A stretch of 32,000 bases of DNA. Origin: Raphidiopsis brookii D9 (GTDB taxonomy: Bacteria; Cyanobacteriota; Cyanobacteriia; Cyanobacteriales; Nostocaceae). Shown piece by piece: positions 2,221 through 24,894 of the stretch (the first letter of the stretch is position 1; every line of letters starts with the position of its first letter). Location of the stretch: NCBI GenBank assembly GCA_000175855.1, contig ACYB01000038.1:1-32000 (forward strand), in the 5' to 3' direction. The notes beneath the pieces were generated by a model that was given only the letters and a program-made list of their open reading frames with translations, made no database searches and was not told the origin of the DNA. The translations under genes and the position numbers were made by a program.

Positions 2221-3618
2221 ATGTCACTGGTAAATTTTCAGGTACAAACAGCCTGTCTAAATCCTCAACAAATATTTTTAGCTTTGTCACAGGTAATTCC
2301 GAGTCAAACCATCACCAAGGCTATTGAATCTACTTGTAGTTCTCAACGAAGACTCAGAATATTACCAACTTATATCATAGTTACCTTAGTCATCGCCATG
2401 AGTTTTTGGTCATCTGACTCCATAGTTGATGTGTTCAAAAATCTCATTCATGGTTTGAGTTCTTTACACATCCCATCAGGTTTACGTCTTCAAACCCCAT
2501 CCGCTTCATCAATTACAGAAGCCCGCCAAAGAACCGGAGCAGCTGTCATGAGAAGGTTATTTGAACTGGTGGCAAAGCCCTTAGCAACAATATTAACACC
2601 TGGTGCTTTTTTAGGGGAATTAAGAATTATGGCTGTGGACGGAACAGTTTTTGATGTTCCAGATACTTCCACAAATGCTAGAGTCTTCGGCTATCCTGGT
2701 TCTCCTAAAGGGACTTATCCAGGTTTTCCTAAAGTCAGATTAGTATTTTTGGTGGAAGCAGGTACTCATTTAATTATAGATGCTTTTTGTTATCCCTATC
2801 GTATGGGAGAAAGGAGAGGTGCTTTAAAGTTACTACGCAGTATTAATTCTAGTATGTTATTAATGTGGGACAGAGGATTACATTCTTTTAAGATGGTTCA
2901 TACTGTCATTAAACAACAAGGAAATTTCCTTGGTCGTGTTCCTGGCAATGTGAAGTTTCAAGTAGTGAAAACGCTGGCAGATGGTTCTTATTTATCATGG
3001 ATTGCACCAGATGGACAGTCAAGAAAGAAAGGAGCAAAAAGAATGGAGGTTCGTATTATTGAATATGTGATTGAGGAGGATGGTACTCTAAAAACCTATC
3101 GGTTGATTACTAATCTAATGGATGTTGATAAGTTTCCGGCTTTGCTGTTAGCACAAGAGTATCATAAACGATGGGAAGCTGAGAATACTTTAGATGAGTT
3201 GAAAGTACATCTATTAGCCAGGAAAATTCCTATTCGTTCTAAGAATCCTCGTGAGGTTGTGCAAGAACTTTATGGTTGGTTGTTAGCTCATTATTGTTTG
3301 CGTTGTTTGATGTTTCAAAGTGCTACTTTGAAGAATATTTCTCCTTTAAGGTTGAGTTTTGTTGGGAGTTTACGAGTAATTCGGCGTGCTATTCCTGAGT
3401 TTCAACGTCAGGTAAATACGAATGTGGATATTAATTTATATTATAGTTGGTTGATGGCTGAAATTTCTGATTTGGAAATTCCTTTACGACAACAGCGAAG
3501 TAATCCTAGAGTGGTGAAGAAGGCTCGTTCTAAGTTTAAGAGTAAAAAACGAAGTCACAGGAATAATTGTACTCCTAGACAACAGTTATCTTTTCAAATT
3601 ATTAAACGGGCAAGTTGA
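2221..3618 (+). CDS. IS4-family DDE transposase
   Basis: 465-aa ORF. Candidate catalytic residues are in MAVDGTVFDVPD and LLMWDRGLHS. A perfect Y-x2-R-x3-E-x6-K signature is present (YHKRWEAENTLDELK), which is diagnostic for IS4-type transposases. Confidence 0.9.
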   Translation: MSLVNFQVQTACLNPQQIFLALSQVIPSQTITKAIESTCSSQRRLRILPTYIIVTLVIAMSFWSSDSIVDVFKNLIHGLSSLHIPSGLRLQTPSASSITEARQRTGAAVMRRLFELVAKPLATILTPGAFLGELRIMAVDGTVFDVPDTSTNARVFGYPGSPKGTYPGFPKVRLVFLVEAGTHLIIDAFCYPYRMGERRGALKLLRSINSSMLLMWDRGLHSFKMVHTVIKQQGNFLGRVPGNVKFQVVKTLADGSYLSWIAPDGQSRKKGAKRMEVRIIEYVIEEDGTLKTYRLITNLMDVDKFPALLLAQEYHKRWEAENTLDELKVHLLARKIPIRSKNPREVVQELYGWLLAHYCLRCLMFQSATLKNISPLRLSFVGSLRVIRRAIPEFQRQVNTNVDINLYYSWLMAEISDLEIPLRQQRSNPRVVKKARSKFKSKKRSHRNNCTPRQQLSFQIIKRAS

Positions 3619-5307: not shown

Positions 5308-6465
5308 ATGAAAAACCAATTACACTTAAGAGCTTTACTAAGCAATTTTTCTGTTTATTCTTTGAGTAAAAATTGGTGGATAGCGGTTATTCTATGGTTT
5401 GCTTTTACCCTTCCTACTCAAGCATCTGTTATTCTGCGTATAGCTATTGAAAAAGAAGTTGAGCAAATTAAGATTGGTGCATCCAGTACAGCTATAGTTA
5501 AAAATAGTTATGGGCGCACTTTAGGAAAACTAACAGCTAGCAACTCGTATGCAGCACAGGCAGTTTTAGGAGAAGTATCCTTAGACAAATGGCAGTCTCG
5601 CTTATTTTGGATTGAACCTACTGCTAAAGGATACGTTTATATAGGCGATCGCTGGTTTCGTGGTAGAACTCTTATTGTATCCACAGGAAAGGGTATAACC
5701 GCTGTCAACTGGGTAGATCTGGAAGAATATCTCTACAGTGTGGTTGGTGGAGAAATGAGCTCTAGTTGGCATGAAGAAGCTCTTAAAGCTCAGGCGATCG
5801 CAGCTCGTACCTATGCCTTGTACAAGAGAAAAGAACAACGGAATAATCCCCTATATGATCTAGGAGATAGTTCTGATAGTTGGCAAGTTTATCACGGTGT
5901 AAGCAGTGAATCTCCTAGAACCTATAGTGCGGTTGATCAAACTGCGGGTCAGGTTCTCACCTATGAGAACCAAATCATTCTTTCAGCATTTCATGCTTGT
6001 TCTGGTGGACACACGGAAAATGTGGAGGATGTATGGGGGAACCCTCTTCCTTACTTGCGAGCAGTTCAAGATTTTGACCAGAACGTCAGGGACTGTAACT
6101 GGAATACCACTCTCAGTTCTGAAGAAATTAGTGCCCGTATTCCGGGTGTGGGTAATGTGAAGGAAATAATGATTGAGTCTTTATCTCCTTTTCGGAGTGT
6201 TAAAACTTTAAGAATTGTTGGCGATCAAGGAAGTAAGGTTCTCAAAGGTGAAGAAGTTCGAACCATTCTCAAGCTTAGAAGTACCCGTTTTACGGTGAAT
6301 AAAGATGTAAATGGTAACTTTGTTCTACGGGGATTAGGTTTTGGACATGGTTTAGGAATGAGTCAGTGGGGAGCATACATCCTAGCCAAAAATGGATTCA
6401 ACCACTTACAAATCCTAGGATACTACTACAAGGGTGTAGCTTTAACCCCGATTAAAGCCAAGTAG
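5308..6465 (+). CDS. SpoIID/LytB domain protein (peptidoglycan remodelling), paralogue 1
   Basis: 385 aa with an N-terminal signal/TM segment. Hallmark SpoIID motifs: YLYSVVGGEM, EALKAQAIAARTYAL, FHACSGGHTENVEDVW, GFGHGLGMSQWGA. Confidence 0.85.
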   Translation: MKNQLHLRALLSNFSVYSLSKNWWIAVILWFAFTLPTQASVILRIAIEKEVEQIKIGASSTAIVKNSYGRTLGKLTASNSYAAQAVLGEVSLDKWQSRLFWIEPTAKGYVYIGDRWFRGRTLIVSTGKGITAVNWVDLEEYLYSVVGGEMSSSWHEEALKAQAIAARTYALYKRKEQRNNPLYDLGDSSDSWQVYHGVSSESPRTYSAVDQTAGQVLTYENQIILSAFHACSGGHTENVEDVWGNPLPYLRAVQDFDQNVRDCNWNTTLSSEEISARIPGVGNVKEIMIESLSPFRSVKTLRIVGDQGSKVLKGEEVRTILKLRSTRFTVNKDVNGNFVLRGLGFGHGLGMSQWGAYILAKNGFNHLQILGYYYKGVALTPIKAK

Positions 6466-8374
6466 ACTTGACAATTCTCCTATATCTTCCCAAAGCTAGT
6501 AAGGGAAAATACTGTTGATAAAGATGATATTTGAGATAAAAATGACCGGGGAAACCAGTTCCAGTAAAGTATGACTCATGCCAAGTACCGTCTAATCTTT
6601 GGGTTGTTAATAAGTAATTAACAGCTTTTTCCATGCTGGTAAAATCAAACTTTTGCCCTGCTTCACCAGCAGCAATTAGTCCCATTAGTCCCCATGCGGT
6701 TTGAGATGGTGTGCTATCACCTTTTCCCTTAAGGTTGGAGTCACCATAACTCAAACAGGTTTCACCCCAACCACCATCAGGGTTTTGCACTTGTTTCAAC
6801 CAGCTGGCACCTTTTTCTAGGTTACTAAGATATTTCTGGGGATTAATCAAGGCCAAAGCTGATAACACACCACTGGTTCCATAGATATAATTAACTCCCC
6901 AACGTCCAAACCAACAACCTTCTGTTTCTTGTTCCCCCAGCAGATAATTCATAGCTTGATCTAGCTTCTGGGATGGGATGGATAGTTTACAAACACCCAA
7001 CATTTCAATTACCCTAGCGGTAACATCCGCAGTATTCGGGTCAATCATAGCTTTCAAATCACCGTATGGGATATAATTGAGCCATTCTTGGTCATTGTCA
7101 ATATCAAAAGCGGCCCAACCCCCGGATTTGCATTGCATGGATATAATCCAATTTACAGCTCGTTTAATAGCTTGTTTTTTTAGATTTTCATTGGGTAATT
7201 TGGCTTGATGTAAGGCCATTACCACCACAGCGGAATCATCCACATCAGGATAAAAGCGATTGTCAAATTCAAATGCCCAAGCACCTGGTTGGCCTTGTTT
7301 GTTTTTGACACCCCAGTCTCCATAATCTATTATTTGCTTATCTATTAACCATTCCCCAGCTTTGACAATTACTGGGTCGTCCGGAACCATACCCGAATCA
7401 ATCAGAGACCGAATTGCCCAAGCTGTGTCCCATACGGGAGAAACACAAGGCTGCACGCAGTAGCTGTTATCTGTTTCGATGACAAAATTATCAACCGCCT
7501 TTAAACCTCTATAGATAATTGGGTCATCTGGTTTATAGTTTAGACATTTTAAAGCTAATAAAGAATTTAACATGGCAGGAATAATTCCCCCCCAGTCCCC
7601 TGTAGACTCTTGGCGCTCTAAAATCCATTTCTCTGCTGCTTTTATCCCCTGGTCTCGCAAGGGGACTAAATTTAAGTTTTCTGCCAATTTGAACCCATCA
7701 TCTAAGAGGGTGAAGATGTCTGACCAATCATTGTTTTTTGGCAGTGACCACTGGGCATTATCTATTCCTTCAGCATATAGCTCATCTAAACTAATAGGAG
7801 AATCGATATCAAAGACTGGTTTTCGATTAAAGACTATTAATAATGGCACTGTGCTAGAACGGGCCCAACTGGAAAGCTCATAAATATTAAAAGGGAAATA
7901 ATCTGGTAATAGCATGACCCAGGGTGGTAATGAAGGTAACCCGCGCCAGTTATAACAACCGATTAATGCTAGATGTAATTTGGTGAAAATCCGGGTTTTA
8001 CTAATGCCACCTTTTTTTAAAATCCAGGATTTGGCTTTGACCAGTGCTGCATCCGTTACAGGTACTCCCAATAACCTTAAACCCATATAAGCTTCCACAC
8101 TGGTACTGAGATCTCCCCCATCTCCATAGTATAGTTCCCAACCACCATGTTCTCTTTGTTGACATCGCAAATAATTTTCAATTTTATATAAAGCTCTATT
8201 TTGGCAGGTTCCCCAAATTTTATGTAACAGTAAAACTTCTACAGTAATGGTCACATTTGACTCTAGCTCACCCCACCAATAGCCTTCTGGTCTCTGAATT
8301 GACAATAGATACTCTTGACTAGCGGCGATCGCCTGTGTAATTTCTTTAATATTTATTCTAGGTTGTGTTTGCAT
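6452..8374 (-). CDS. shc: Squalene-hopene cyclase
   Basis: 640 aa with repeated QW-type motifs (QxxxGxW, e.g. QRPEGYWWG, QREHGGWE, QESTGDWGG, QCKSGGWA, QNPDGGWGE, QRLDGTWH). The class II terpene cyclase DxDD motif is present (DVDDSAVVVMAL). Confidence 0.93.
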   Translation of the reverse strand: MQTQPRINIKEITQAIAASQEYLLSIQRPEGYWWGELESNVTITVEVLLLHKIWGTCQNRALYKIENYLRCQQREHGGWELYYGDGGDLSTSVEAYMGLRLLGVPVTDAALVKAKSWILKKGGISKTRIFTKLHLALIGCYNWRGLPSLPPWVMLLPDYFPFNIYELSSWARSSTVPLLIVFNRKPVFDIDSPISLDELYAEGIDNAQWSLPKNNDWSDIFTLLDDGFKLAENLNLVPLRDQGIKAAEKWILERQESTGDWGGIIPAMLNSLLALKCLNYKPDDPIIYRGLKAVDNFVIETDNSYCVQPCVSPVWDTAWAIRSLIDSGMVPDDPVIVKAGEWLIDKQIIDYGDWGVKNKQGQPGAWAFEFDNRFYPDVDDSAVVVMALHQAKLPNENLKKQAIKRAVNWIISMQCKSGGWAAFDIDNDQEWLNYIPYGDLKAMIDPNTADVTARVIEMLGVCKLSIPSQKLDQAMNYLLGEQETEGCWFGRWGVNYIYGTSGVLSALALINPQKYLSNLEKGASWLKQVQNPDGGWGETCLSYGDSNLKGKGDSTPSQTAWGLMGLIAAGEAGQKFDFTSMEKAVNYLLTTQRLDGTWHESYFTGTGFPGHFYLKYHLYQQYFPLLALGRYRRIVKSTWL

Positions 8375-8502
8375 AAAAGATCGACTTTAACAGATTCCCC
8401 ACTCATCCGTGGAATTTGGCCATCTAGCCTTGGTGATATTTATTATATTATCATATTTGTTTCCAGTATATTTCTGATTAAACTAATACGTTAGAGAAAG
8501 TT

Positions 8503-9684
8503 ATGCTGCTTGCGGAGATGGAACAAGTTTTATTAGGTTTGATGGTTTTATCCTTAGGGACTTGGTTGTTTTTGTTTTTATTTTGGGGGCAGTTTTGGCG
8601 GGTAGATCAACTATTAAAGCCTACAACCCCTACAACAAACAACTTTACATCTTTACCCAAAATTTGTATAATAATTCCAGCACGTAACGAGGCAGATTTT
8701 GTAGCCATAACCATAAAATCACTTTTGTTACAAGACTATCCAGGAGAGGTGAATATATTTCTAGTGGATGACCAAAGTAGGGATGGTACGGCCGATTTTG
8801 CCGAGGAAGCAGCTTATGCAGTTGGTCGGGTTAACCAACTAGAAGTTTTGACTGGTGGGGATTTACCCACAGGTTGGACTGGCAAAATTTGGGCAATGGA
8901 ACAGGGTGTGCAAAAAGCTCTGGAATTAAACCCAGATTATTTTTTGTTTACCGATGCGGATATAGAACATCATACAAGAAATTTAGGTCAATTAGTCCAC
9001 AAAGCAGAAACAGAAGGTTTAGATCTAGTATCTATAATGGTCAAGCTCCGATGTGAAAGTTTTTGGGAAAACCTATTAATACCTGCTTTTGTCTTCTTCT
9101 TTCAAAAACTCTATCCCTTTGCTTGGGTCAATAACCCCAAGAAATCTATAGCTGCAGCAGCTGGTGGATGCGTTTTAATTCGTAGACAAACCCTAAGGAA
9201 AATTGGGGGACTAAAAACAATTAGTCACGCTTTAATTGATGATTGTTCTTTAGCCAAGGCTGTGAAATCCCAGGGAGGAAGAATTTGGTTAGGACTAAGT
9301 TCCCTAACTGTCAGTTTACGTCCCTATAATTCCTTAGGAACCATTTGGAACATGGTAGCTCGCAGCGCCTACACCCAGCTAAGTTACTCTCCCTTACTAT
9401 TAATGGGTAGTGTGTTGGGTATGGTGATAGTTTATATCTTACCTGTGGTGGGAATCATTATCGGTTTGGCTATAAATAACGTGCTGATCTCTCTCCTGGG
9501 TCTAATCACTTGGCTATTAATGAGTTTTGCTTACTTACCTATCATTAAGTTTTACCAATGTGCTCTCTGGTTTGCTGGTTGTTTACCCCTAATTGCCCTG
9601 CTTTATACCTTAATGACCGTAGATTCAGCTTATCGTCATTGGCAAGGTAAAGGTGGTAGCTGGAAAGAAAGGGTTTATTTGTGA
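8503..9684 (+). CDS. Family-2 glycosyltransferase with membrane anchor, hopanoid-associated (HpnB-like)
   Basis: 393 aa: an N-terminal TM, a GT2 core (IIIPARNEADFVAITIKSLLLQDYP, FLVDDQSRDGT, FTDADIEH) and a C-terminal multi-TM region. It is divergently adjacent to shc, the arrangement described for the hopene-associated glycosyltransferase HpnB. The subfamily assignment is from memory, not from a search. Confidence 0.65.
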   Translation: MLLAEMEQVLLGLMVLSLGTWLFLFLFWGQFWRVDQLLKPTTPTTNNFTSLPKICIIIPARNEADFVAITIKSLLLQDYPGEVNIFLVDDQSRDGTADFAEEAAYAVGRVNQLEVLTGGDLPTGWTGKIWAMEQGVQKALELNPDYFLFTDADIEHHTRNLGQLVHKAETEGLDLVSIMVKLRCESFWENLLIPAFVFFFQKLYPFAWVNNPKKSIAAAAGGCVLIRRQTLRKIGGLKTISHALIDDCSLAKAVKSQGGRIWLGLSSLTVSLRPYNSLGTIWNMVARSAYTQLSYSPLLLMGSVLGMVIVYILPVVGIIIGLAINNVLISLLGLITWLLMSFAYLPIIKFYQCALWFAGCLPLIALLYTLMTVDSAYRHWQGKGGSWKERVYL

Positions 9685-9799
9685 TATTTATTGGTAATTG
9701 TCCTAATTGTCGGGATTTGGGCAAAAATCAACGATTATTATGTTATGGGTTTATGGGTGCCCATCGTCTATTACTCAATCCGGTTTCATTGAAGTTTTC

Positions 9800-11374
9800 A
9801 TGAGAATATTTTTGTGGCGTTCCGCATGCAATATACTAGTCACCCTTTCCCTATTGGGACTAACGGGAGCTTCTGATCCTATCAGTGGTCAAGATAGGGA
9901 ACTGAAAATTGGCATCGTCCAACGATTTGCTTCGGTCAAGACCGATAAATTAGAACTCAAAGCCACTCGCGATGACTATTTAAGGCTAAAATGGCAGACA
10001 AATGACGGACAAAAAACTGTGATTTCTACTGCTAACACTGTTGAGCTAATTCCAATCATGGAAACTCTCAGACAACCCCAAGTGTGGGAAGTATTGGTGT
10101 TGGGAGATTATCGAACTTTTGAAGCAGCAGAAGACAGTGCCAAAAACTGGCGTTCTCAGGGTCTGGAGGTGGAAATAGCCCAGCCAGAACGTTGGCAAGT
10201 TTGGGCAAAACGGGATGTCTACACTACTCCTTTACTTAGACGGCTATTATTAACAAGTATCCACAGGTCAGGTCAAAAAATACCTTATTTAAATACACAA
10301 GTTATTAAACAAGTAGCTAGGGTAACTTGGGAAGTTAATGGTCGCCAATATACCAGTAGTTATCTGGAAATAACTAGTCGTAAGGGAAAGATTTGGATTA
10401 ATAATACCCAAAACCCGGTAATAAAAACTTTTCCTGGTAGTTTGTATTTACAACCTAATGCTTATGGTAGCTACTCTTTGGTAAATCTCGTGGGTCTAGA
10501 AACCTATTTACGAGGAGTTTTACCCTATGAAATCGGCACAAAAGCACCCGAAGCAGCTCTTGAAGCTCAAGCAATTATCGCTCGTACTTATGCTCTCCGA
10601 AATATACATAGATTTGCTGTGGATAACTATCAGCTATGCGCGGATACACACTGTCAGGTATATGATGGATTGAATGGCGCAAGTAAAAAAACCGATCAGG
10701 CGATCGCCAGTACCAGAGGTCAAGTATTAACTTATAATAATGAGCTAGTGGATGCTCTATATTCTTCCACTACGGGAGGTGTAACAGCTTATTTTAGTGA
10801 TGTTTGGAATGGGGAAGATCGTCCTTATTTACGTCCTGTGGTAGATGCGCCTAAAAATATTTGGAACATATCCGAGAAAAGTTTAGCTGATGAAGAGAAT
10901 TTTCGTCAGTTTATTGGTTTAGAACAAGGATTTAACGAAAGTAAATGGGATGTATTTCGTTGGTATAGAGAAACAAATTTAGAGGATATTACTAAAGACT
11001 TACAAAAGTTTCTCAAAGCGAAAAATAGTCAATATGCCAATTTTAAGACTATTGAGGCCATGTCCATTACTCAAAGGAGCCACAGTGGCAGAATTTTATC
11101 ATTAGCTGTCAAAACGGATATTGGAGTTTTGAATTTACACAAAGATGAAGTTCGTAGCGCTTTTGCCGCTCCCGTAAGTACACTGTTTTACTTGCAACCA
11201 ATCAATAAAGGAAAGTCTCAGGTATGGGGATATGCTTTTATTGGTGGGGGGTTAGGACATGGGGTAGGTTTAAGTCAAACAGGGTCTCAAAATTTAGCTC
11301 AGTTAGGTTGGTCAAGTGCCAAAATTCTTACCTTTTATTACCCGGGTACAAAAATTGAAATTTTCCGTAGGTAA
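9800..11374 (+). CDS. SpoIID/LytB domain protein, paralogue 2 (long N-terminal extension)
   Basis: The tracked ORF starts at a TTG (9707). The ATG at 9800 gives MRIFLWRSACNILVTLSLLGLTGA, a plausible signal peptide. SpoIID motifs are present: YLRGVLPYEI, EALEAQAIIARTYAL, YSSTTGGVTAYFSDVW, GGGLGHGVGLSQTGS. Confidence 0.8.
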   Translation: MRIFLWRSACNILVTLSLLGLTGASDPISGQDRELKIGIVQRFASVKTDKLELKATRDDYLRLKWQTNDGQKTVISTANTVELIPIMETLRQPQVWEVLVLGDYRTFEAAEDSAKNWRSQGLEVEIAQPERWQVWAKRDVYTTPLLRRLLLTSIHRSGQKIPYLNTQVIKQVARVTWEVNGRQYTSSYLEITSRKGKIWINNTQNPVIKTFPGSLYLQPNAYGSYSLVNLVGLETYLRGVLPYEIGTKAPEAALEAQAIIARTYALRNIHRFAVDNYQLCADTHCQVYDGLNGASKKTDQAIASTRGQVLTYNNELVDALYSSTTGGVTAYFSDVWNGEDRPYLRPVVDAPKNIWNISEKSLADEENFRQFIGLEQGFNESKWDVFRWYRETNLEDITKDLQKFLKAKNSQYANFKTIEAMSITQRSHSGRILSLAVKTDIGVLNLHKDEVRSAFAAPVSTLFYLQPINKGKSQVWGYAFIGGGLGHGVGLSQTGSQNLAQLGWSSAKILTFYYPGTKIEIFRR

Positions 11375-16730: not shown

Positions 16731-16805
16731 GAATTAGTTGGTTATTAAAAGGACAGAATTGAATCAAATCAGTAATTTTATTACACCTAATTTAGCATAA
16801 CAAAA

Positions 16806-18230
16806 ATGTTAAACCTAATTAATCGCTTAAAAAACAACAAACCTCTGTTATTTGCAATATACGGTACTAGTGGCTGTTTAACAGCAGCAATTTTACTTGG
16901 GGAACCATTTTTAGCTCTAACCAAACTTGGGAAAAGTTCTACAATCAAACCCCAAGCAATAGTTTTATTAATCGACACATCTTCAAGTATGAGTGATGGT
17001 AAACTAGCAGAAGTAAAAACCGCAGCCAGTCAGTTTATACAACGTCGTAACTTGGAATCAGATCAAATAGCAGTAGTCAATTTTGGAGCAACTGTGCAAA
17101 CCCCTGCTCCATTAACTAACGACATTAATACCCTAAATAATGCCATTGATCAACTATTAGAAATTGGCTCAACACCTATGGGAGAAGGTATTAACACCGC
17201 CCAAGATCAATTGCAAGCAACAACATTAAATAAAAATATCATTTTATTTACCGATGGACTGCCAGATGATCCTAATTTTGCCTACAACTCAGCCCTGTCT
17301 GTGAGAAATGCAGGAATTAAACTAATTGCTGTAGCTACCGGAGGTGCAGACACTAACTATTTAACCCAGATCACAGGCGATCGCTCCCTAGTGTTTTATG
17401 CTAATTCTGGTCAATTTGACCAAGCATTTAGCCAAGCAGAAGCGGTAATTTATAAACAGTTGATTGAATCCAACACTGGTGAAAACTATGGTTTTGGCTA
17501 TTCCATATTCCGCATTGGTGGTTGGACAGCATTTTTGGCTTTGGGAATATCCCTGGCATTAATTATGGGACAAAATCGCTATATGCGACTACCTTTATTA
17601 ACTTTAAAAAAGGGCATTGTTACTACTATCGGTAGTCTCACAGCGGGAACTGTAGCAGGTGCATCTGGACAATTACTAATTTTAGCTTTATCACCTCTTT
17701 CTAGTACGGTATTTTTAGGAGTACTTGGTTTGGAGGTAATTGCTAAAATTGGCGGTTGGGTAATTTTAGGAGCTGTAGTGGGAGCTGGAACCAAATTTTT
17801 TTTGTCCCCAATTTTAACCTTGAAAAATTCTCTACTGGGAGGAACTGTTGGTGGTGGAATTGGCGCTAGTGGATTTTTGGTGACATCAAGTCTCCTTGGT
17901 GATATTGTAGGACGTCTATCTGGTGTATCTATACTAGGATTCTTTATCGGTTTAATGATTGCTTTAATTGAACGAAAGCAGTTAAACTCAGAACCTTATC
18001 TGTTAGTACATTGGACCCCCACGGAGCAGACCAACTATTTACTGGGTAAAAAGCCGATTTCTATGGGCACTGCACTAAATGTGGAAATTCCTCTAAATGC
18101 TGTGGATGGATTTACACCCCTGACTGCTAGAATATTTAAGGAAGGTGGTGACATTATTATGCAATTTGACCAGGAATATGCTATGATACAAAAAAATGAA
18201 AGTTACCAGTCAGACTTTAAAAGTCGGTGA
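16806..18230 (+). CDS. Membrane vWA-domain protein with a Gly-rich multi-TM block and an FHA-like C-terminal domain (3' end apparently frameshifted; intact reading would end at 18279)
   Basis: 474 aa with an N-terminal TM (PLLFAIYGTSGCLTAAILLG). The vWA domain has MIDAS residues (LLIDTSSSM, GSTPMGEG, LFTDGLPDD). About 17480-17975 encodes 5-6 Gly/Ala-rich hydrophobic helices. The tail YLLVHWTPTEQTNYLLGKKPISMGTALNVEIPLN...ARIFKEGGDIIMQF has an FHA-like layout. Removing one A from the A7 run 18190-18196 continues the protein as ...IQKMKVTSQTLKVGDVRKLGKITIEVKDKT. Confidence 0.75.
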   Translation: MLNLINRLKNNKPLLFAIYGTSGCLTAAILLGEPFLALTKLGKSSTIKPQAIVLLIDTSSSMSDGKLAEVKTAASQFIQRRNLESDQIAVVNFGATVQTPAPLTNDINTLNNAIDQLLEIGSTPMGEGINTAQDQLQATTLNKNIILFTDGLPDDPNFAYNSALSVRNAGIKLIAVATGGADTNYLTQITGDRSLVFYANSGQFDQAFSQAEAVIYKQLIESNTGENYGFGYSIFRIGGWTAFLALGISLALIMGQNRYMRLPLLTLKKGIVTTIGSLTAGTVAGASGQLLILALSPLSSTVFLGVLGLEVIAKIGGWVILGAVVGAGTKFFLSPILTLKNSLLGGTVGGGIGASGFLVTSSLLGDIVGRLSGVSILGFFIGLMIALIERKQLNSEPYLLVHWTPTEQTNYLLGKKPISMGTALNVEIPLNAVDGFTPLTARIFKEGGDIIMQFDQEYAMIQKNESYQSDFKSR

Positions 18231-18334
18231 TGTCCGTAAATTGGGAAAGATTACTATAGAAGTTAAGGATAAAACCTAATTGCGCTGTCTAAAATCTCTT
18301 TCCCTAGATTTTTTCAATTGGCGAATAACATTAA

Positions 18335-18718
18335 ATGGTTAAATATACCTTTTACCTCAAACCTCAAGGTTCTCCTGAACAGTATAGTTATAGTTTAGAT
18401 CTCAGTGTGACCGAGGAAGATGCACCTGAAAAGGTTTTTACCCCCACCATTAGAGAAAACATTCGCACAACCTTACAAAATCTGAGTCTATCGGCAATTA
18501 AGGATTACCAACTTAGCCAAATTATTCAAAGCTGGATTGAGGATATTAGGGAGGGTTATAGATTTAGTTCCCTCAGTCTTAATTTGGGATTATTAATTGA
18601 TGAAAACATTGACCAACTAAGGGAAAATGGCAACCAAGAAATTCCTCCCATTGTCGACCCAGATATATCCAATATAGAACCTCAAGCGGGAGTATTACCA
18701 CCTTTAAATTTTATTTAG
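18335..18718 (+). CDS. Acidic hypothetical protein (127 aa) inside the vWA/FHA/kinase cluster
   Basis: ORF on the same strand between the two vWA genes. It has no TM segment and no motif I recognise. Confidence 0.45.
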   Translation: MVKYTFYLKPQGSPEQYSYSLDLSVTEEDAPEKVFTPTIRENIRTTLQNLSLSAIKDYQLSQIIQSWIEDIREGYRFSSLSLNLGLLIDENIDQLRENGNQEIPPIVDPDISNIEPQAGVLPPLNFI

Positions 18719-18785
18719 GTTTAAGTCTGGTAATTTAAATCTGAGAACGGGTTGTTTTTGTTGAAATTGAAAAAGGAGATATGAG

Positions 18786-20180
18786 ATGAAGAATGCCATA
18801 AAAACTGCCATTGCTCCCAACCGGGAATTTATGTTAGCAGATAAAGCAGGACAAAAGTTATTTGTGATGTTGAAGTTACGTCCAACAAAGGATATAGCTA
18901 CCAATCTTCCACCAACTAGTTTTACCTTTGTCATTGACACCAGTGGTTCAATGTATGAAGTAGTCGCAGGTGATGTAGAAGATACGGGTGTTACCTATCA
19001 ACAGGATGGCAAAGAATATAAACAGGTAACAGGGGGTAAATCAAAAATAGATATAGTGATTGAATCTTTATTAAGATTAGTTAATTCAGGGAAGTTAAAA
19101 CAACAAGATCGTGTTTCTATAGTTCAATTTGATGACAGTGCTTCCCAGATAATTGGGCTGACTAGTGCAACGGAAACTAAACAAATTGAGACTGCAATTA
19201 AAAAATTGAGAGATTTCTCAGGTGGTACCCGCATGGGTTTAGGATTGCGGCGTGCTTTTGATATATTGAGTGAACAGGAAATGACCGTCAAACGTGCCCT
19301 CTTATTTACAGATGGGCAAACATTTGATGAAGATCAATGTCAATCAATTGCTAATCACTTTGCCACCCGTAATATACCAATTACTGCATTAGGAGTGGGG
19401 GAAGAGTTTAATGAGGATTTACTTACCCATCTGAGCGACTACACTGGGGGAAAATTATTCTATGTAGTACCCGGAATAGCTAAGGGTACAGAAGTGTCCA
19501 TGCTGGATTTACCTAATAAGATTATTTCTGAATATAGTGAAGCACAACAGGAGGTAATCACTAATTTGGCTTTAACTGTGAAAACTGTGAAAGGAGTAGA
19601 ACTAAGTCGTATTGTTCGTGCTTATCCTACCCAAGCAGAATTTCCTATTAATCAAGATCCCTTTCCCTTAGGAAATGCTATTGCTCATGATGAAACTATT
19701 TTCATCCTAGAATTTACAGTTAATAACCGTCCTGCTTCTCGTGTACGTATTGCTCAACTGGGATTGACCTATGACATTCCCGGAGAAAAAGGGCGTGGCG
19801 AAATACCACCAGAAAATCTCATCATTCAATTTCTTGCTGGAGAACATAATGCAGCTCAGTTTAATCAAGAGGTGATGGACTATGTGCAACAATGCAATAT
19901 TGCTAATCTGGTTGACCAATCTATCAAAATGGCAGAAAAGAATCCAGAAAAAGCAGAGAAATTATTAGAAACAGCTAAAAGAATGACGTTGAAACTTGGT
20001 AATAGCGAAATGACAGAATCTTTAAATAATGCTCAGTCCGAATTGCGAAAAACTCAAAAAATCTCATCAGGAACTCGGAAGACGGTGAAAATGGGTGCTA
20101 AAGGGAAAACGGTGAAAATGGGTAACGATATTGATGATATGCTCTCAGAAGAGGAGATGCGGAATATGGTGGGAACATGA
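18786..20180 (+). CDS. Soluble vWA-domain protein with a long C-terminal extension
   Basis: 464 aa with MIDAS motifs FVIDTSGSM, GGTRMGLGL and LFTDGQTFD. A beta-rich region of ~120 aa and a helical tail follow. The extreme C-terminus has a duplicated KTVKMG motif. Confidence 0.8.
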   Translation: MKNAIKTAIAPNREFMLADKAGQKLFVMLKLRPTKDIATNLPPTSFTFVIDTSGSMYEVVAGDVEDTGVTYQQDGKEYKQVTGGKSKIDIVIESLLRLVNSGKLKQQDRVSIVQFDDSASQIIGLTSATETKQIETAIKKLRDFSGGTRMGLGLRRAFDILSEQEMTVKRALLFTDGQTFDEDQCQSIANHFATRNIPITALGVGEEFNEDLLTHLSDYTGGKLFYVVPGIAKGTEVSMLDLPNKIISEYSEAQQEVITNLALTVKTVKGVELSRIVRAYPTQAEFPINQDPFPLGNAIAHDETIFILEFTVNNRPASRVRIAQLGLTYDIPGEKGRGEIPPENLIIQFLAGEHNAAQFNQEVMDYVQQCNIANLVDQSIKMAEKNPEKAEKLLETAKRMTLKLGNSEMTESLNNAQSELRKTQKISSGTRKTVKMGAKGKTVKMGNDIDDMLSEEEMRNMVGT

Positions 20181-20269
20181 TAGAAGATCATGCAAGATCA
20201 TAAATCTCTCGTCAAAGCAATACTCTTGAACAGTTCTACCATAATCAGTGTGAATAAGGATAAAATACC

Positions 20270-20800
20270 ATGATTACTTGTACAGCTTGCGGATATGATC
20301 AAAATTTGGATAATACTGAATTTTGCACCATTTGTGGTTCGGAACTACCTGTTGCTGTCGCTACGTCACCCACAATTATTGAACCAACAGTATTACCGAC
20401 ACCAGAAACTAACTATCCACCTGTTGACACTCACTCTGCTGACTCTTGCTCTGGGAATACGTCTACAACCGCTAAATTAGTATCTAAACAAACTAATGCT
20501 CCCCTACCGGAGTTTATTATCGAGAATAATGCCATAGTTGGTATTTTTGACCAGGACACTGGCCCAGTGGATATAGATTTAGAAACCTTTTTCGGTGGAG
20601 AAACCGTATCCCGCAACCACGCGGAAATTTATCAGGAATCAGGAATGTGGAAGGTTAAGGATTTAGGATCTACTAACGGGGTGTTTATTAAGAATCAAGG
20701 ACAAACGCGATTTAGTTCTAGAATTACTGTACCTACTCTCCTCAAATCAGATGACGAAGTTGCATTTGGTAAGGTCAGATTTGTTTTTAAAAACATTTAG
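20270..20800 (+). CDS. Zinc-ribbon + FHA domain protein
   Basis: 176 aa with N-terminal CxxC-x11-CxxC (TCTACG...FCTICG) and a Pro/Thr-rich linker. The FHA core is GGETVSRNHAEIYQESGMWKVKDLGSTNGVFIKNQ...DDEVAFGKVRFVF. Confidence 0.88.
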   Translation: MITCTACGYDQNLDNTEFCTICGSELPVAVATSPTIIEPTVLPTPETNYPPVDTHSADSCSGNTSTTAKLVSKQTNAPLPEFIIENNAIVGIFDQDTGPVDIDLETFFGGETVSRNHAEIYQESGMWKVKDLGSTNGVFIKNQGQTRFSSRITVPTLLKSDDEVAFGKVRFVFKNI

Positions 20801-20844
20801 GGAATATATGGGGAACATATAAGTAACATATAGATAACAAACAA

Positions 20845-22659
20845 ATGAGTGATGCTACCAGTCAGTTACCACTAATAATTCAAGAAAACATCTGTTTTCA
20901 CATCGAAGCTCTACCCATAGAAATAATATCCTATTTAGGAAAGTTAACCCCTGAGATTGACTACTTCCAAGTTCGGATCATGTCTGATGCAAAACTAGGT
21001 CTACTCAGAATAGGTGCAACTGACGGTGCACTCAACCGAGAACTACTTTTGAGAAACCAATTGGGAGATTACAAGTTAATCTCTCGCATTTTATTGCATA
21101 GGGTAGAAGAGAACGTTGCTGTTGATACTAACGCTAACATTAGTCCTGACGCTAACACTATAACCTCTGGTATTTTGGATGGAGTTTCTGATCCTTTATT
21201 AAGCATATTAGGCACAATAGAAAATCTTGAGGATCATAATCTTGAGAATGGAAATACTCCCCTCACGGAACCAGGTCAGGAGATAAATGAAGACAAAGAA
21301 TATCTGGAGGAAGAATATTATCCGGAAGCAGAAATTCTTGTTAATGTTTCAAATGAAAAGCTGCTAGTTCTTAGTTATCTTCCCGATGAAAATCAAAGTT
21401 TAGAACATTGGCTAAAAACAGAACATGATTTAGAACAATCATTGTTAATTACTAGCCAAATCTGTCAGGTGTTTCGCTATCTTCACCAAAGGGAATGGTG
21501 CATTCTGAATTTCGTACCCCGATTTATTCAGATGGGAACTCTAATCCAATTTTTCGACCTAACTAGTGTTTACCCCCTGGGAGAAGTTCTCAGCTGTGGA
21601 TTTATGGGCAACTATTACGCTCCCGAATTAGCATATTCTAAAGACCCAATTGAAGAAAAGATGAGTAGTTATGCAGTAGGAGCATTGCTATATCAAATAA
21701 TTCACCGTCAAAATCTACCCACGGACCCAACTAAGCAAATAGAAATTAATCCCATACCTCAGATTTATCAAATTCTCAAAATTTGCCTATCTCAGTTACC
21801 AGAAGAAAGATTTACCCTAGAACAACTATTAAAAATATTGGTCAATACTCGACAGGAAATTACTATCCCTAAAGTTAATTGGGAGACGGCAAGTTTATCT
21901 ACCCTGGGACTATCAATTAACCGGTTGCAAAATGAGGATAACTATGGAATTAAACAACATAAAAATGGCGATCGCCTGACGGTAATGTTAGCTGGAATTG
22001 CGGATGGTATGGGGGGAATGTCCCAGGGGGAATTAGCTAGTAGGTTAGCTATAGAAACTATATTGGGATCTCCCATACCGCTAGAAAATCTCACTAAGGA
22101 ACAATATCAAGAATGGCTACAATCTTTATTTGTGGAAGCCCATGATAGGGTATCTGACCAAATTAAAAATGGGGGAACAACTTTAAGCGTGATTTTCGCG
22201 CTCTCTCAAGAATTAATGATTGCTCACGTGGGTGACAGTCGTATTTATTTACTGCGTCAAGGAGAAATGAGACAACTCAGTGAAGATCACTCTCTAGTTG
22301 CTATATTATTAGCCAGCGGAAAAATTACGGAAGAGGAACTCTCAAACCACCCAGACAGAAATATTCTCACTAAATCAATCGGTTGGAAAGGTAGATTGAG
22401 TGCTGGCTATGTTCAAGATTTACAACAAACTACCTCAAAACTAACGATGAAATTGGAACACGGAGATATTCTCTTACTATGTTCTGATGGAGTTTGGGAT
22501 TTAGTTTCTAAAAACCAACTAGCTACAAATTTCACGACTGAATCTAACCTACAAACAGCTGTCAATCTTACTATTGACCAGGTTTTACAGGAGGGTGCAA
22601 CTGATAATGCTACCCTATTAGCACTCAGGTTTTCAGTTACGGATGGTTTGAAAACTTGA
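20845..22659 (+). CDS. Fusion protein: degenerate protein-kinase-like (pseudokinase) N-terminal domain + PP2C Ser/Thr phosphatase C-terminal domain
   Basis: 604 aa. The C-terminal ~260 aa carry PP2C motifs (RLQNEDNY, AGIADGMGGMSQGELAS, VGDSRIYL, LLLCSDGVWD, TDNATLLAL). The N-terminal ~340 aa keep the kinase C-lobe layout (YLHQREWCILNFVPRF, IQFFDLTS, YYAPELA, SYAVGALLYQIIH). They lack a Gly-loop, HRD, the catalytic Asn and a DFG in register. Confidence 0.8.
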   Translation: MSDATSQLPLIIQENICFHIEALPIEIISYLGKLTPEIDYFQVRIMSDAKLGLLRIGATDGALNRELLLRNQLGDYKLISRILLHRVEENVAVDTNANISPDANTITSGILDGVSDPLLSILGTIENLEDHNLENGNTPLTEPGQEINEDKEYLEEEYYPEAEILVNVSNEKLLVLSYLPDENQSLEHWLKTEHDLEQSLLITSQICQVFRYLHQREWCILNFVPRFIQMGTLIQFFDLTSVYPLGEVLSCGFMGNYYAPELAYSKDPIEEKMSSYAVGALLYQIIHRQNLPTDPTKQIEINPIPQIYQILKICLSQLPEERFTLEQLLKILVNTRQEITIPKVNWETASLSTLGLSINRLQNEDNYGIKQHKNGDRLTVMLAGIADGMGGMSQGELASRLAIETILGSPIPLENLTKEQYQEWLQSLFVEAHDRVSDQIKNGGTTLSVIFALSQELMIAHVGDSRIYLLRQGEMRQLSEDHSLVAILLASGKITEEELSNHPDRNILTKSIGWKGRLSAGYVQDLQQTTSKLTMKLEHGDILLLCSDGVWDLVSKNQLATNFTTESNLQTAVNLTIDQVLQEGATDNATLLALRFSVTDGLKT

Positions 22660-22719
22660 ATGACTATAAGACTTTTGTATTCTCATCTGTATTCTTAGTT
22701 AAGTCATCAACTCAAATAT

Positions 22720-24894
22720 ATGCAGTGTCTTACTTGTCTGACCGATAATCCCGATAATGCCATCAGTTGTATTGCTTGTGGTGCACCTTTAAACTCCCAG
22801 ACAGGGATATCAAATCTACATCTCACACCAGGAGCATTGATTGGCAATGGTAGATATAGAATAGAAACAGTATTGGGACAAGGTGGCTTTGGTATTACCT
22901 ATGCAGCAACCTGTCTGACAAATTCTACTCAAGTTGCTATTAAGGAATTATGGCCAGAAAAAGCTGCTAGACAAGGTAATGCTGTTTTATGGCCAACATC
23001 AATTACTCCCGCACAGCGTCTGGAACAACTGCAAAAATTTCAATTGGAAGCTAATTATTTACAAAGGTGTAAACACCCCAATATTGCCGAAACTTATGAA
23101 TATTTCCCAGAAAATAATACGGCATATATGATTATGGAACTACTGGTTGGTAAGTCCCTAGATAAAATTTTGATGACGGAAGGAATATTAGAGGAAAATC
23201 GGATCAAACGTTATTTTTTACAAATAGCATCCGCTTTACAGGTTATTCATAGTCATAATTTATTACACCGCGATGTTAAACCGGAAAATATTATCATTGT
23301 ACCACCAGATAGAGCTGTACTCATAGATTTTGGTGCAGCAAGGGAGTTTATTGCTGGTCAAACGGGAGACATGACCAGAATTCTCACTGCTGGATATGCA
23401 CCTTATGAACAATATATTCAAAAAAGTAAACATTTTCCCGCTACTGATTTATATGCTTTATGTGCATCAATGTATGAATTATTGACTGGACAATTACCAA
23501 CAGAAGCTACAGAACGAGCTAGCAAACTTTTGCAAATTCCTCCAACAGATACATTGATTTCTCCTCGACAACTTAACCCTAAGATAACTCCTTTGATGGA
23601 AAAAATTATATTGACAGGAATGGGATTTAAGGTCGACGATAGGTTTCAAACTGCCCAGGAATTAATCGCAGCTATGCAGGGTAATTTTATTTATCCCCAA
23701 CACCAAAAAGCCAAGGAGTTAGTCAAACAAGGTAATTTAATTGCTGCGGTGGAAGCATATCAAAAATACTTGGAACTCCCAGGTAGCATTCCACAAGCAT
23801 TTGTAGAATTAGCTTTAGTACAAATACATTTAGATCAAGTCCAGGCTAAGATGGCAGCTACAAATGCTATTAAATTCCAACCAAATGATGGTCGAGGATA
23901 TGGAGTTTTGGGGTTGATTAATTGCCGTGAAAACCATTGGCAAGATGCTGTAAGTAATTTACAAAAAGGGTCTAATTTATCTCCTGATCAAGGTTGGATA
24001 CAAATAAATTTAGCTTGGGCATTAGCGAAATTAGGAAATTTAACTGCTGCTCAAACAACTATAGATAAAGTCTTGGCGGATAAAGTTTTAGAAGTAGAAT
24101 CAGATGCTATCTTCGCCCTAACTTTGAAAGCATGGATATGTCTCCAGCAGCAAGAATGGAAATCTGTTATTCGTGCAGCTAGTCAAGCTTTATTTAAATT
24201 ACAAAATCTATCAGCCAATCTAACACCTAGCTTAAGTAAGGATGAACAACAATTACAGTCAAATCTGTATATCTATTTAATTACAGCTTTGGATAAATCA
24301 GTGGTCACTAAAAAAGCTAACGATGTTAGTCTTAGAACACAGGAGTTTATAGATAAATCACCTAATAATGCAATAGCATGGGGTCTAAAGGGCTGGAAAC
24401 AAGCAAATGAACTTTTATGGAAAGACGCAGTGATTAGTTTTGAAGCTGCTATTCAGCAACCATCAGTTCCCGGTTGGGTGTTGGTAAATTGTGCAGTAGC
24501 TCAAGAAAATCTAAAAAACTATCAAGCAGCTATTGAAGTTTATAATAAATACATAAACTATGTTCACAATGAAACCCTACCCCAGGGAGACAGAAATTCA
24601 TTATTAGCATTTGCCCATTTTCGGATAGGTACTTTATATGGGCAATTGGCACTATGGAATGAAGCTAAATTGTTTTTAGACAAAGCAATTCAGTATGTTA
24701 ATAGTTATGCACAGGCATATCATAATTTGGGTTGGGTACTACTGAATACCAAAAACCAATATGGAGATGTGGAAAATAGCCGAGAAATGTTTTCCGCATA
24801 TACTCAAGCAATAAAACTATACAACAAGTCCCAACAACAGGAATTGGCATCAGACATAAAACAGGCATTTCAATTAATAGGTCTAAGTGTTTAA
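22720..24894 (+). CDS. Zinc-ribbon + Hanks-type Ser/Thr protein kinase + TPR repeat protein
   Basis: 724 aa with N-terminal CxxC-x10-CxxC (QCLTCL...SCIACG). The kinase motifs are GQGGFG, VAIKEL, HRDVKPENIII, DFGAAREF and GYAPYEQ. The C-terminal ~390 aa are TPR-like helical repeats. Confidence 0.9.
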   Translation: MQCLTCLTDNPDNAISCIACGAPLNSQTGISNLHLTPGALIGNGRYRIETVLGQGGFGITYAATCLTNSTQVAIKELWPEKAARQGNAVLWPTSITPAQRLEQLQKFQLEANYLQRCKHPNIAETYEYFPENNTAYMIMELLVGKSLDKILMTEGILEENRIKRYFLQIASALQVIHSHNLLHRDVKPENIIIVPPDRAVLIDFGAAREFIAGQTGDMTRILTAGYAPYEQYIQKSKHFPATDLYALCASMYELLTGQLPTEATERASKLLQIPPTDTLISPRQLNPKITPLMEKIILTGMGFKVDDRFQTAQELIAAMQGNFIYPQHQKAKELVKQGNLIAAVEAYQKYLELPGSIPQAFVELALVQIHLDQVQAKMAATNAIKFQPNDGRGYGVLGLINCRENHWQDAVSNLQKGSNLSPDQGWIQINLAWALAKLGNLTAAQTTIDKVLADKVLEVESDAIFALTLKAWICLQQQEWKSVIRAASQALFKLQNLSANLTPSLSKDEQQLQSNLYIYLITALDKSVVTKKANDVSLRTQEFIDKSPNNAIAWGLKGWKQANELLWKDAVISFEAAIQQPSVPGWVLVNCAVAQENLKNYQAAIEVYNKYINYVHNETLPQGDRNSLLAFAHFRIGTLYGQLALWNEAKLFLDKAIQYVNSYAQAYHNLGWVLLNTKNQYGDVENSREMFSAYTQAIKLYNKSQQQELASDIKQAFQLIGLSV

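Follow-up and report, generated by a model that had tools for sequence, protein, structure and literature searches.

Several described systems join a Ser/Thr kinase and a phosphatase to proteins with von Willebrand factor A (vWA) or forkhead-associated (FHA) domains, and here we compare with them six neighbouring genes (A to F) of the cyanobacterium Raphidiopsis brookii D9, located in a stretch of 32,000 nucleotides (assembly GCA_000175855.1, contig ACYB01000038.1, positions 1 to 32,000 of the forward strand) that is called the window throughout. One of these systems is the threonine-phosphorylation pathway of the Pseudomonas aeruginosa H1 type VI secretion system (H1-T6SS), composed of the kinase PpkA, the PP2C phosphatase PppA, Fha1 and TagQRST. 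Its sensing end is a periplasmic vWA domain (carried by PpkA, which has its own transmembrane, TM, segment), with the periplasmic or lipoprotein components TagQ and TagR upstream. Another is the TerY-P triad, reportedly defined by Anantharaman, Iyer and Aravind in 2012 and said to be treated also by Gao et al. in 2020. The triad places a vWA protein, a PP2C and a Ser/Thr kinase in one operon, for which a phosphorylation-switch logic has been proposed, and its kinase carries a C-terminal Zn-ribbon or, in the defence-validated form, an OB-fold (PMC11090510).

The Arn module of the archaeon Sulfolobus acidocaldarius, known from experiment, represses the archaellum and includes the kinases ArnC and ArnD and the phosphatase PP2A (PDB 5A8I, 5A8J, 8S05; PMC6509490, PMC12852372). 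The C-terminal region of ArnB, a vWA protein, carries phospho-threonines (pThr) written by the Hanks kinase ArnC; the FHA domain of ArnA binds the pThr of ArnB, and its zinc finger contacts ArnB at both its beta-sandwich and its C-terminal domain (PMC6509490, PMC12852372). In Deinococcus radiodurans, the operon DRA0331-DRA0334, described in a 2026 preprint, encodes a vWA protein, a Ser/Thr protein kinase (STPK), a FraH-like FHA protein and a KI-FHA-PP2C protein (bioRxiv 10.64898/2026.01.23.701218). Finally, the GTPase-centric DO-GTPase/GAP1-N2 systems were predicted computationally (Kaur, Burroughs, Iyer, Aravind, eLife 2020; PMC7159879); in the text of that paper their kinase/PP2C/vWA theme is limited to actinobacteria, and cyanobacteria are not listed (PMC7159879).

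We think it somewhat probable that the six genes of the window are the conserved phospho-signalling arm of a larger, envelope-associated cyanobacterial system with an ArnA-ArnB-like core. The literature searched held no paper on this cyanobacterial cluster or on its six-gene set and no characterised system of identical composition, in agreement with a previous reading of this DNA from its letters and open reading frames (ORFs) only (the sequence-only reading); nor did it hold a functional study of the locus tags of Trichormus variabilis plasmid B, one of the carriers of the cluster. What is new is a system of ~20 kb that, in the same literature, is neither characterised nor listed for cyanobacteria, and that is similar to the DO-GTPase systems which have been predicted to serve in conflicts in multicellular bacteria.

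Anatomy of the six genes and the likeness to ArnA-ArnB

The cluster and the features discussed below are as follows.

16731..16805, + strand: spacer between map and gene A, carrying the deletion scar of a lipoprotein (X) gene array
16806..18279 (the called ORF stops at 18230), + strand: gene A; N-terminal TM helix, vWA predicted to lie outside the cytoplasm, five TM helices rich in Gly and a beta-sandwich (degenerate FHA-like) predicted to be cytoplasmic
18194..18202, + strand: 1-nt insertion in gene A, at a CA7 run; last 15 codons frameshifted
18335..18718, + strand: gene B; acidic 127-aa protein, alpha/beta domain (1-88) and predicted-disordered tail
18786..20180, + strand: gene C; cytoplasmic ArnB-like vWA protein with two N-terminal strands, vWA, an extension that is probably beta-rich and then helical, and a Thr-rich tail
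20040..20123, + strand: Thr motifs clustered towards the C-terminus of C (LRKTQKIS-GTRKTVKMG-KGKTVKMG), putative site of phosphorylation and of FHA binding
20270..20800, + strand: gene D; ArnA-like, 4-Cys Zn-ribbon, Pro-rich linker and FHA
20845..22659, + strand: gene E; pseudokinase (~1-345) fused to an active-looking PP2C (359-599)
22720..24894, + strand: gene F; N-terminal Zn-ribbon, Hanks Ser/Thr kinase and ~390 aa of tetratricopeptide repeats (TPRs)

The six ORFs were found by an ORF check of the window at precisely the positions given by the sequence-only reading, all of them on the + strand. Pfam and NCBIfam profile searches of the window proteins, from which the domain assignments used here are taken, also back the anatomy that it had proposed (vWA in A and C, Zn-ribbon-FHA in D, PP2C in E, and Zn-ribbon, kinase and TPRs in F), and we hold this anatomy and the relationships of the cluster with high confidence. 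The MIDAS (metal ion-dependent adhesion site), described before as intact in A and C, has its DxSxS...T...D residues invariant in both vWA families. The gap of 104 bp previously given between A and B shrinks to 55 bp since the true end of A is at 18279. No ter, T6SS or MoxR genes are present in the window, as had been stated, and Rfam and tRNA scans of it gave no matches. The GC content of the cluster is the same as that of its flanks.

The nearest characterised counterpart emerged from the products of C and D. Besides a Zn_Ribbon_1 domain, the D protein has an FHA domain (Pfam, FHA 3e-12) in which S-R-x-H and N-G (or N-S) are conserved across orthologues. Against the PDB, the top match of the D-family profile was ArnA of Sulfolobus (5a8i_A, E = 1.7e-13), aligned over profile positions 3-161, across the Zn-ribbon and the linker and on into the FHA domain. 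The structure 8s05_C came next (4.3e-13) and GarA/OdhI reached ~1e-7 only. A GarA-like autoinhibitory pThr site considered in D (T-A-[KR]-L-[IV]-x-K-Q, residues ~66-77, window 20465-20500) was set aside, as it aligns with strand beta1 of the ArnA FHA domain and is probably structural.

In the 464-aa C protein the vWA domain (residues 47-227; Pfam, 1.9e-17) is followed by an extension of ~235 aa. Both the MIDAS (D51/S53/S55/T148/D176) and three threonines of the tail (T423, T433 and T442), together with flanking K/M/G residues, are invariant in 17 orthologues, and T-x-K-[IM]-[SG] occurs three times and without variation. The C-family profile matched ArnB (8s05_A at 4.5e-10, mainly over the vWA core and the tail; 5a8j at 1e-4), and in this profile alignment the tail of C lies on the TRRIS/TRRIG/TRKIS region of ArnB; 4fx5_A was matched at E = 0.098 only. 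An exhaustive search enlarged the C family, of proteins of ~420-470 aa, to 405 representative clusters at E < 1e-10, with 88 full-length ones at E < 1e-30. All of them end in T-x-K-T-[LIV]-[KR]-[ILM]-G-x-[KR]-T-[QK]-T-[ILVM]-K ... EEIR[KR][IL][TS]G[AT] down to 28% identity, which makes the Thr tail a family-wide signature (at least 88 family clusters). One named member of the family is from Trueperaceae, where two kinases flank it and a vWA-TM-FHA-FHA protein is encoded ahead of it.

Judged by these profile alignments, D is a homologue of ArnA, and C a homologue of ArnB-type vWA proteins. The C and D genes are adjacent, as in the Arn pair, D shares the Zn-ribbon, linker and FHA architecture of ArnA, a Hanks kinase is available as the writer, and C appears to combine, like ArnB, a MIDAS-vWA domain with an extension that ends helical and carries clustered T-x-[KR]-[IM]-[SG] motifs. 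The two modules differ in that the host here is bacterial, the eraser is a PP2C-pseudokinase fusion instead of PP2A, the kinase carries TPRs, the proteins A and B are added, and relatives of the window cluster have a GTPase/vWA/lipoprotein block of ~12 kb upstream; moreover, the phosphate-binding Arg is not conserved in D, and a link to motility is known for Arn only. The sequence-only reading had taken TerY-P and the T6SS switch as the nearest precedents. With the D profile at 1.7e-13 and the C profile at 4.5e-10, the latter with tail-to-tail alignment, the closest characterised relative would instead be the archaeal ArnA(ZnR-FHA)-ArnB(vWA + Thr tail) module.

Two further genes, E and F, supply the candidate enzymes. 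The PP2C of E (residues 359-596) is of the Stp1 type (NCBIfam, 3.5e-52) and its metal-binding motifs NED, DGMGG, GDSR, DG and DN are invariant. Residues 161-345 match protein kinases only in the PDB, and the PDB alignment shows I-L-N in place of H-R-D, F in that of the catalytic Asn and FDL in that of DFG; Pkinase was detected in 5 of 16 E orthologues (best E = 3.6e-07). The earlier description of E as a kinase-like domain with dead catalytic motifs fused to an intact PP2C was accurate. So was that of F as an active-looking Hanks kinase, as all its catalytic motifs (GQGGFG, VAIK, HRD, DFG) are readable in the translation, and Pfam gives Pkinase at 2.4e-41 together with a Zn-ribbon and several TPR families. 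The idea that the pseudokinase of E is a recent duplicate of F was rejected (BLAST E = 0.022 over 48 residues).

Synteny and the surrounding super-cluster

A genome scan with the A family gave 40 species-level loci. We number the related loci L0xx, L041 being that of Cylindrospermopsis raciborskii and L042-L044 those of close relatives. In at least 25 species-level loci, from at least five cyanobacterial orders, A-B-C-D-E-F are colinear and on the same strand (Nostocales, Microcoleus, Xenococcaceae/Pleurocapsales, Spirulina, Prochloron and Chroococcales). This synteny is far beyond chance, and the comparison of gene neighbourhoods suggested by the sequence-only reading found the six genes together where they might have been scattered. 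The flanks of the window cluster (map, FAD oxidoreductase, psbQ) are not conserved with it in those loci. Across the cyanobacterial orders, identity falls gradually with taxonomy.

The same reading had considered the cluster self-contained and devoid of partner machinery, a view that had to be abandoned, as in most of these cyanobacteria the six genes form the last third, at the 3' end, of a super-cluster of 15-18 genes and ~20 kb, with the order G3-G2-G1-H737-H361-vWA-X(n)-[Ser]-A-B-C-D-E-[F']-[H315]-F. It is present in ~30 cyanobacterial loci plus 2 plasmids. The proteins G1-G3 have P-loops and the Walker-B Glu by which DO-GTPases are defined (DTPGE, DYPGE, DYAGE), and their best Pfam family is DO-GTPase1/2, at 27-34 bits for a cut-off of 27. 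H737 (~740 aa) has one TM helix. The Gly-rich H361 protein has several TM segments and a C-terminus that is FHA-like, and some sources annotate it as FHA; its orthologues are found in ~30 loci (for example L045 11976-13061), and its family of 344 clusters is more widely spread than A (e.g. Chroococcidiopsis, Geminocystis). The third vWA protein of the super-cluster carries a signal peptide and is anchored by a C-terminal TM segment. Arrays of 1-5 X paralogues, which are periplasmic lipoproteins with lipoboxes, are directly upstream of A in 27 of the 40 loci, the overall copy number being 0-5. In C. raciborskii, three X genes with lipoprotein signals, two of them with ARC6-like_IMS (NTF2-like) domains, are located between map and A. 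[Ser] is a serine hydrolase that is present in some loci only, and F' is an extra short kinase found outside Nostocales.

A few observations concern single components. H361 was considered as a simple paralogue of the TM and beta module of A, and the similarity proved weak (E = 0.006-0.07). The F' gene of the Gloeothece PCC 7822 plasmid (L046 20560-21762) is annotated as an FHA-domain-containing Ser/Thr kinase. In several loci a TM protein of ~310 aa, H315, is encoded after E or F' and before F.

The cluster is also carried by plasmids. Searches with tblastn located it on plasmids of Tolypothrix and Microchaete, on a Gloeothece plasmid that is conjugative and, in Trichormus variabilis, on plasmid B (35.8 kb), whose main cargo is the cluster within its super-cluster. 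No ter or restriction genes are linked in the 46 related loci or in the window, and neither the window nor the related loci contain T6SS genes.

This wider context can be compared with three of the described systems. With the DO-GTPase systems it shares paralogous small TRAFAC GTPases with a Walker-B Glu, encoded upstream in the relatives, many TM components that include a multi-TM protein with a predicted extracellular vWA domain (A), NTF2-type extracytoplasmic domains, and the sub-theme of Zn-ribbon kinase, PP2C and standalone vWA that is represented here by F, E and C. It differs from them in that no GAP1 was detected, the three GTPases have no Zn-ribbons and are absent from the window, and that paper describes neither an FHA protein, nor a pseudokinase-PP2C fusion, nor B. 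The partly characterised operon DRA0331-DRA0334 combines the same four activities, its FHA protein has been described as a FraH (Zn-ribbon-FHA) orthologue, its PP2C is fused to an N-terminal kinase-interaction module (a comparison made by description), and the Trueperaceae (Deinococcota) locus of the C family, with its kinases and vWA-TM-FHA protein, matches it. In Deinococcus, however, KI-FHA takes the place of the pseudokinase beside the PP2C, the kinase carries TM helices and no TPRs at its C-terminus, and equivalents of A or B are not reported. As to the T6SS pathway, the Hanks kinase, the PP2C and the FHA protein recur, and the X lipoproteins and the vWA domain of A parallel TagQ/TagR and the periplasmic vWA. 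Here, though, the predicted periplasmic vWA is on a separate multi-TM protein (A), F lacks both a TM segment and a vWA domain, the locus adds a second vWA protein that is cytoplasmic and ArnB-like, and T6SS genes are missing.

Genes A and B and the proposed switch

A way to approach the role of A in the cluster is to place its domains with respect to the membrane. Its vWA domain (residues 52-202; Pfam, E = 1.4e-22) has a MIDAS (D57/S59/S61/T123/D150) that is invariant across the A family. We have used the AlphaFold2 (AF2) model of an intact orthologue, 96% identical (mean pLDDT, the predicted local distance difference test score, 80.7). It shows helices at 12-38, 230-260, 267-301, 308-329, 338-363 and 366-394, of which the five TM helices after the vWA domain pack as an ordinary bundle, and a beta domain of 9-10 strands in the C-terminal region (397-486). 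Averaged over 33 orthologues, the number of K+R residues is 2.6 at the N-terminus, 3.2 in the TM2-3 loop and 2.2 in the TM4-5 loop, in contrast to 0.0 in the TM3-4 loop and 0.1 in the TM5-6 loop. Because of this alternation the positive-inside rule would place the vWA domain outside the cytoplasm and the beta domain inside it. An extracytoplasmic vWA domain fits the lipoproteins and the second secreted vWA protein that are co-encoded in relatives.

The C-terminal beta domain had been described as an FHA-like tail, and while the vWA domain, its intact MIDAS and the multi-TM block stood, this part of the earlier description found little backing in the sequence. The family alignment shows none of the GR, SxxH and NG residues. 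The tail profile gave no matches in the PDB, 1 of 17 members matched a Pfam family (Yop-YscD_cpl, at 0.0039), hhalign gave 0.5% probability against the D family, the tail HMM scored 3.4 bits against the FHA region of the Trueperaceae protein, and a fold search with the whole A model found vWA matches only. On the other hand, this Trueperaceae protein (T583, vWA-TM-FHA-FHA) aligns with A over a stretch reaching from TM1 to the first part of the beta domain (28.6% identity, E = 8.6e-33) and has Pfam FHA/YscD domains (3.5e-10 and 1.3e-12) at the position of the A beta domain. Since T583 has FHA at that position while A has neither significant FHA similarity nor the pThr residues, the tail is probably a degenerate FHA-like domain, a positional equivalent of FHA and not an FHA proper, and pThr binding by it is unlikely.

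In the window, A is interrupted close to its end by one extra nucleotide (window GATACAAAAAAATG, compared with GAT-TAAAAAAATG in relatives). The frameshifted ORF ends at 18230 with 10 wrong residues replacing the conserved last 15, and the +1 frame recovers the conserved ending ...KVGDVRKLGKITIEVKDKT*, terminating at 18279. The extra base is not found in L042 and L043 (96% aa identity) or in C. raciborskii, where A has 487-489 aa. Being a single base next to a homopolymer, it may reflect either an error of sequencing or a lesion particular to the strain. The best matches of A are metagenomic contigs and Raphidiopsis sp. BLCC-F218 (96-97% identity), with C. raciborskii at 85%. Variants of A were seen elsewhere: tandem duplicates in L018 and L021 (Calothrix PCC 7716, Sphaerospermopsis aphanizomenoides), a long form (~590-600 aa) in several Nostocales with an extra Gly-rich TM insert of ~100 aa, and a copy beside an HlyD/ABC-exporter-like operon in L024.

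The product of B had been called an acidic orphan of 127 aa, as indeed it is: its net charge is -10, searches of Pfam, NCBIfam and PADLOC assigned it to no family, and its homologues are cyanobacterial hypotheticals only. Its AF2 model has a pLDDT of ~85 for residues 1-88 and below 50 for residues 89-127. This tail of 40 residues, predicted to be disordered, is yet the most conserved part of the protein (GNQE.P..I.PD[IL]S.IEP..G.LPPLNF), a combination that reads as the signature of a docking motif. A relationship of B to the PI3K Ras-binding fold was discarded, its best fold match (E = 0.06, TM 0.27) not being significant.

A candidate writer (F), eraser (the PP2C of E), reader (the FHA domain of D) and substrate-like tail (C) are encoded together and co-inherited, and the phospho-threonine logic previously proposed for this kinase/PP2C/FHA/vWA set holds as far as the motifs can tell. 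We modestly favour a phospho-switch of the following kind. Kinase F, possibly gated by its TPRs or its Zn-ribbon, would phosphorylate the T-x-K-[IM] motifs in the tail of C. D would then dock on C, with the FHA domain on the pThr tail and the Zn-ribbon on the body of C, as ArnA does on ArnB, turning a loose contact into a tight one. The PP2C of E would reverse the phosphorylation, its pseudokinase half probably targeting E to F or to the substrate. A would be a protein of the cytoplasmic membrane whose MIDAS-vWA domain lies in the periplasm, near the lipoproteins in those relatives that have them, and it would couple an envelope cue to the switch, while B may be an adaptor whose disordered tail docks on a partner (the TPRs of F or a MIDAS site). 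In species with the full system, the DO-GTPases, H737 and H361 presumably act with the switch or downstream of it. The output could be envelope surveillance or an anti-invader (conflict) response, both proposed with low confidence. A itself looks more like a sensor, receptor or anchor than like a pore. Its earlier assignment as the output, a membrane permeabiliser, is not favoured, since the positive-inside pattern puts the vWA domain outside, adjoining the lipoproteins of relatives, in the place of an input or anchor.

The reduced locus and the rival readings

The window holds a shortened version of this system. Neither the window nor L042-L044 nor the 10 kb upstream in C. raciborskii contains the GTPase block, H737, H361 or the gene of the third vWA protein, and a tblastn search found no X genes in the window. 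There is also no entry from Cylindrospermopsis or Raphidiopsis among the top 120 homologues of H361, which is suggestive and not proof. The 75-bp spacer between map and A is chimeric, its left part aligning with the map-X1 spacer of C. raciborskii and its right part with the X3-A spacer (counterparts in L041 at 7034-7104 and 9942-10000), and the junction lies between short repeats; it is a clean deletion scar. The window lineage lost the upstream part at this locus and keeps A-F only.

The remaining genes have their own history. Between the window and C. raciborskii, the flanks are 96-98% identical with a synonymous divergence (dS) of 0.08-0.17. A-F, at the same position (L041 10001-17933), are 71-90% identical with a dS of 0.44-1.5, that is 4-10 times the flanks, and the excess is bounded by the cluster edges. 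The ratio of non-synonymous to synonymous divergence (dN/dS) of all six genes is 0.09-0.20 against C. raciborskii and 0.10-0.32 against L042, like that of the flanking housekeeping genes; A-F are under purifying selection. As the dS is 4-10 times the background and bounded by the cluster edges, and dN/dS is low, the excess suggests the import of a divergent allele and not relaxed selection, and since the GC content equals that of the flanks, the donor was probably another member of Nostocales. A-F are intact in L042, L043 and C. raciborskii, and L044 is cut within C. Raised divergence, plasmid carriage and a variable number of X genes are typical of accessory or conflict loci. Farther from the cluster, the window has an ORF for a Uma2-like endonuclease and one for an IS4-like transposase (231-1019 and 2221-3618, from translations only), and in 5308-11374 two SpoIID-domain genes around a squalene-hopene cyclase (6452-8374, minus strand) and a glycosyltransferase, with Pfam labels taken from the syntenic L042.

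A number of observations weigh against a phospho-signalling arm built on an ArnA-ArnB-like core. Generic vWA domains of the collagen VI type match the C profile over the vWA core as well as ArnB does, and a profile of the C extension by itself found no ArnB in the PDB, only helical designs for its distal part. The phosphate-binding Arg of the GR motif in the FHA domain of D is Ile in Nostocales (window included) and Lys in some Oscillatoriales, with Arg retained in Spirulina. Among 5 orthologues, H737 gave no Pfam or GAP1 match save one weak PG_binding_1, and could at most be a very divergent GAP1; the link to the DO-GTPase/GAP1 systems is therefore carried by the GTPases only. Parts of the system are also separable: A is found alone, with no other cluster genes within 10 kb, in Planktothrix (L024, L026, L033) and in L019; the Prochloron chromosome L032 has the GTPase block with A, B, D, E, F' and F, and neither C nor X genes. 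In Candidatus Marithrix (Gammaproteobacteria; L039 6409-11389, also L038), the only non-cyanobacterial source of A that was found, an A homologue with 36-37% identity is directly downstream of a TerY-P-like triad (a 231-aa vWA protein, a TM-PP2C_2 protein and a kinase), which may reflect transfer between cyanobacteria and large sulfur bacteria. A second Prochloron locus (L022) has an X array, the serine hydrolase and A, and no B-F. To these have to be added the frameshift of A in this sequence and a promoter and terminator scan whose counts, below the shuffle expectation, were uninformative.

The Marithrix arrangement, in which a true-looking triad adjoins A, is also what most recommends taking the cluster as a TerY-P triad with extras, together with the vWA, PP2C and Ser/Thr kinase activities that are joined in one operon here. 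The parts themselves make this very improbable, since three of the four defining features are missing. C is an ArnB-type protein of 464 aa, with a conserved extension and a Thr tail, and not a TerY of ~220 aa, and A is a membrane protein of 489 aa; F has an N-terminal Zn-ribbon and TPRs instead of the C-terminal Zn-ribbon or OB-fold of the definition (PMC11090510); in E the phosphatase is joined to a pseudokinase; the cluster has an FHA protein among its integral parts; and none of the loci has linked ter or restriction genes. Decay of A-F towards pseudogenes with no function left here, once the GTPase block and the lipoprotein genes had gone, would explain the missing upstream block in the window, its close relatives and the C. 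raciborskii upstream region, the gap in the H361 homologues, the scar in the map-A spacer and the frameshifted A. It is nevertheless improbable, as the dN/dS values are those of housekeeping flanks, the six genes are intact in L042, L043 and C. raciborskii, all catalytic and MIDAS motifs are retained, and the frameshift is one base by a homopolymer run that may be a sequencing error.

A more serious competitor is a stand-alone anti-phage or abortive-infection system, in which the switch would sense infection and free A, and its Gly-rich, glycine-zipper-like TM helices would permeabilise the membrane. Plasmid carriage (as the main cargo of Trichormus variabilis plasmid B, on the conjugative Gloeothece plasmid and in Tolypothrix), the 0-5 X genes and a cluster dS of 0.44-1.5 next to flanks at 0.08-0.17, which suggests allele import, all fit such a role. 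DO-GTPase systems have been proposed as conflict systems (PMC7159879), TerY-P-like modules defend against phage (PMC11090510), and in Marithrix an A homologue follows a TerY-P-like triad. We still consider it rather unlikely. PADLOC returned generic kinase/PP2C models only (PD-T4-6, mad6, PDC-M21C), from a library that gave no TerY-P-type match even for the Marithrix triad; no toxic effector domain is recognisable; the modelled TM helices of A form an ordinary bundle with a clear inside/outside charge pattern and a vWA domain that would face outwards; the distribution is broad and identity decays gradually with taxonomy; and the GC content is that of the flanks, with housekeeping genes as neighbours here.

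A phospho-signalling arm of a larger, envelope-associated system is thus the reading that we retain. Beyond it, and quite tentatively, the super-cluster might be an undescribed envelope-spanning surveillance or immunity machine, widespread in cyanobacteria and sometimes plasmid-borne, in which lipoproteins and vWA proteins sense an invader or damage while the switch and the DO-GTPases set the threshold of the response. Should this be so, the Raphidiopsis-like lineage would exemplify a minimal version of natural origin, still working on the switch arm alone, and the ArnA-ArnB switch would be an ancient module common to Archaea, Cyanobacteria and Deinococcota. The likeness of C and D to ArnB and ArnA ties a dissected archaeal switch to a large bacterial family and provides mutable residues for the study of Ser/Thr signalling in cyanobacteria. 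The wider super-cluster is a more interesting object than its reduced version in the window. Along these lines, the window lineage (A-F) and C. raciborskii (X plus A-F) are natural deletion variants that show which parts persist under selection without the rest, a ready-made dissection in bloom-forming, toxin-relevant Nostocales.

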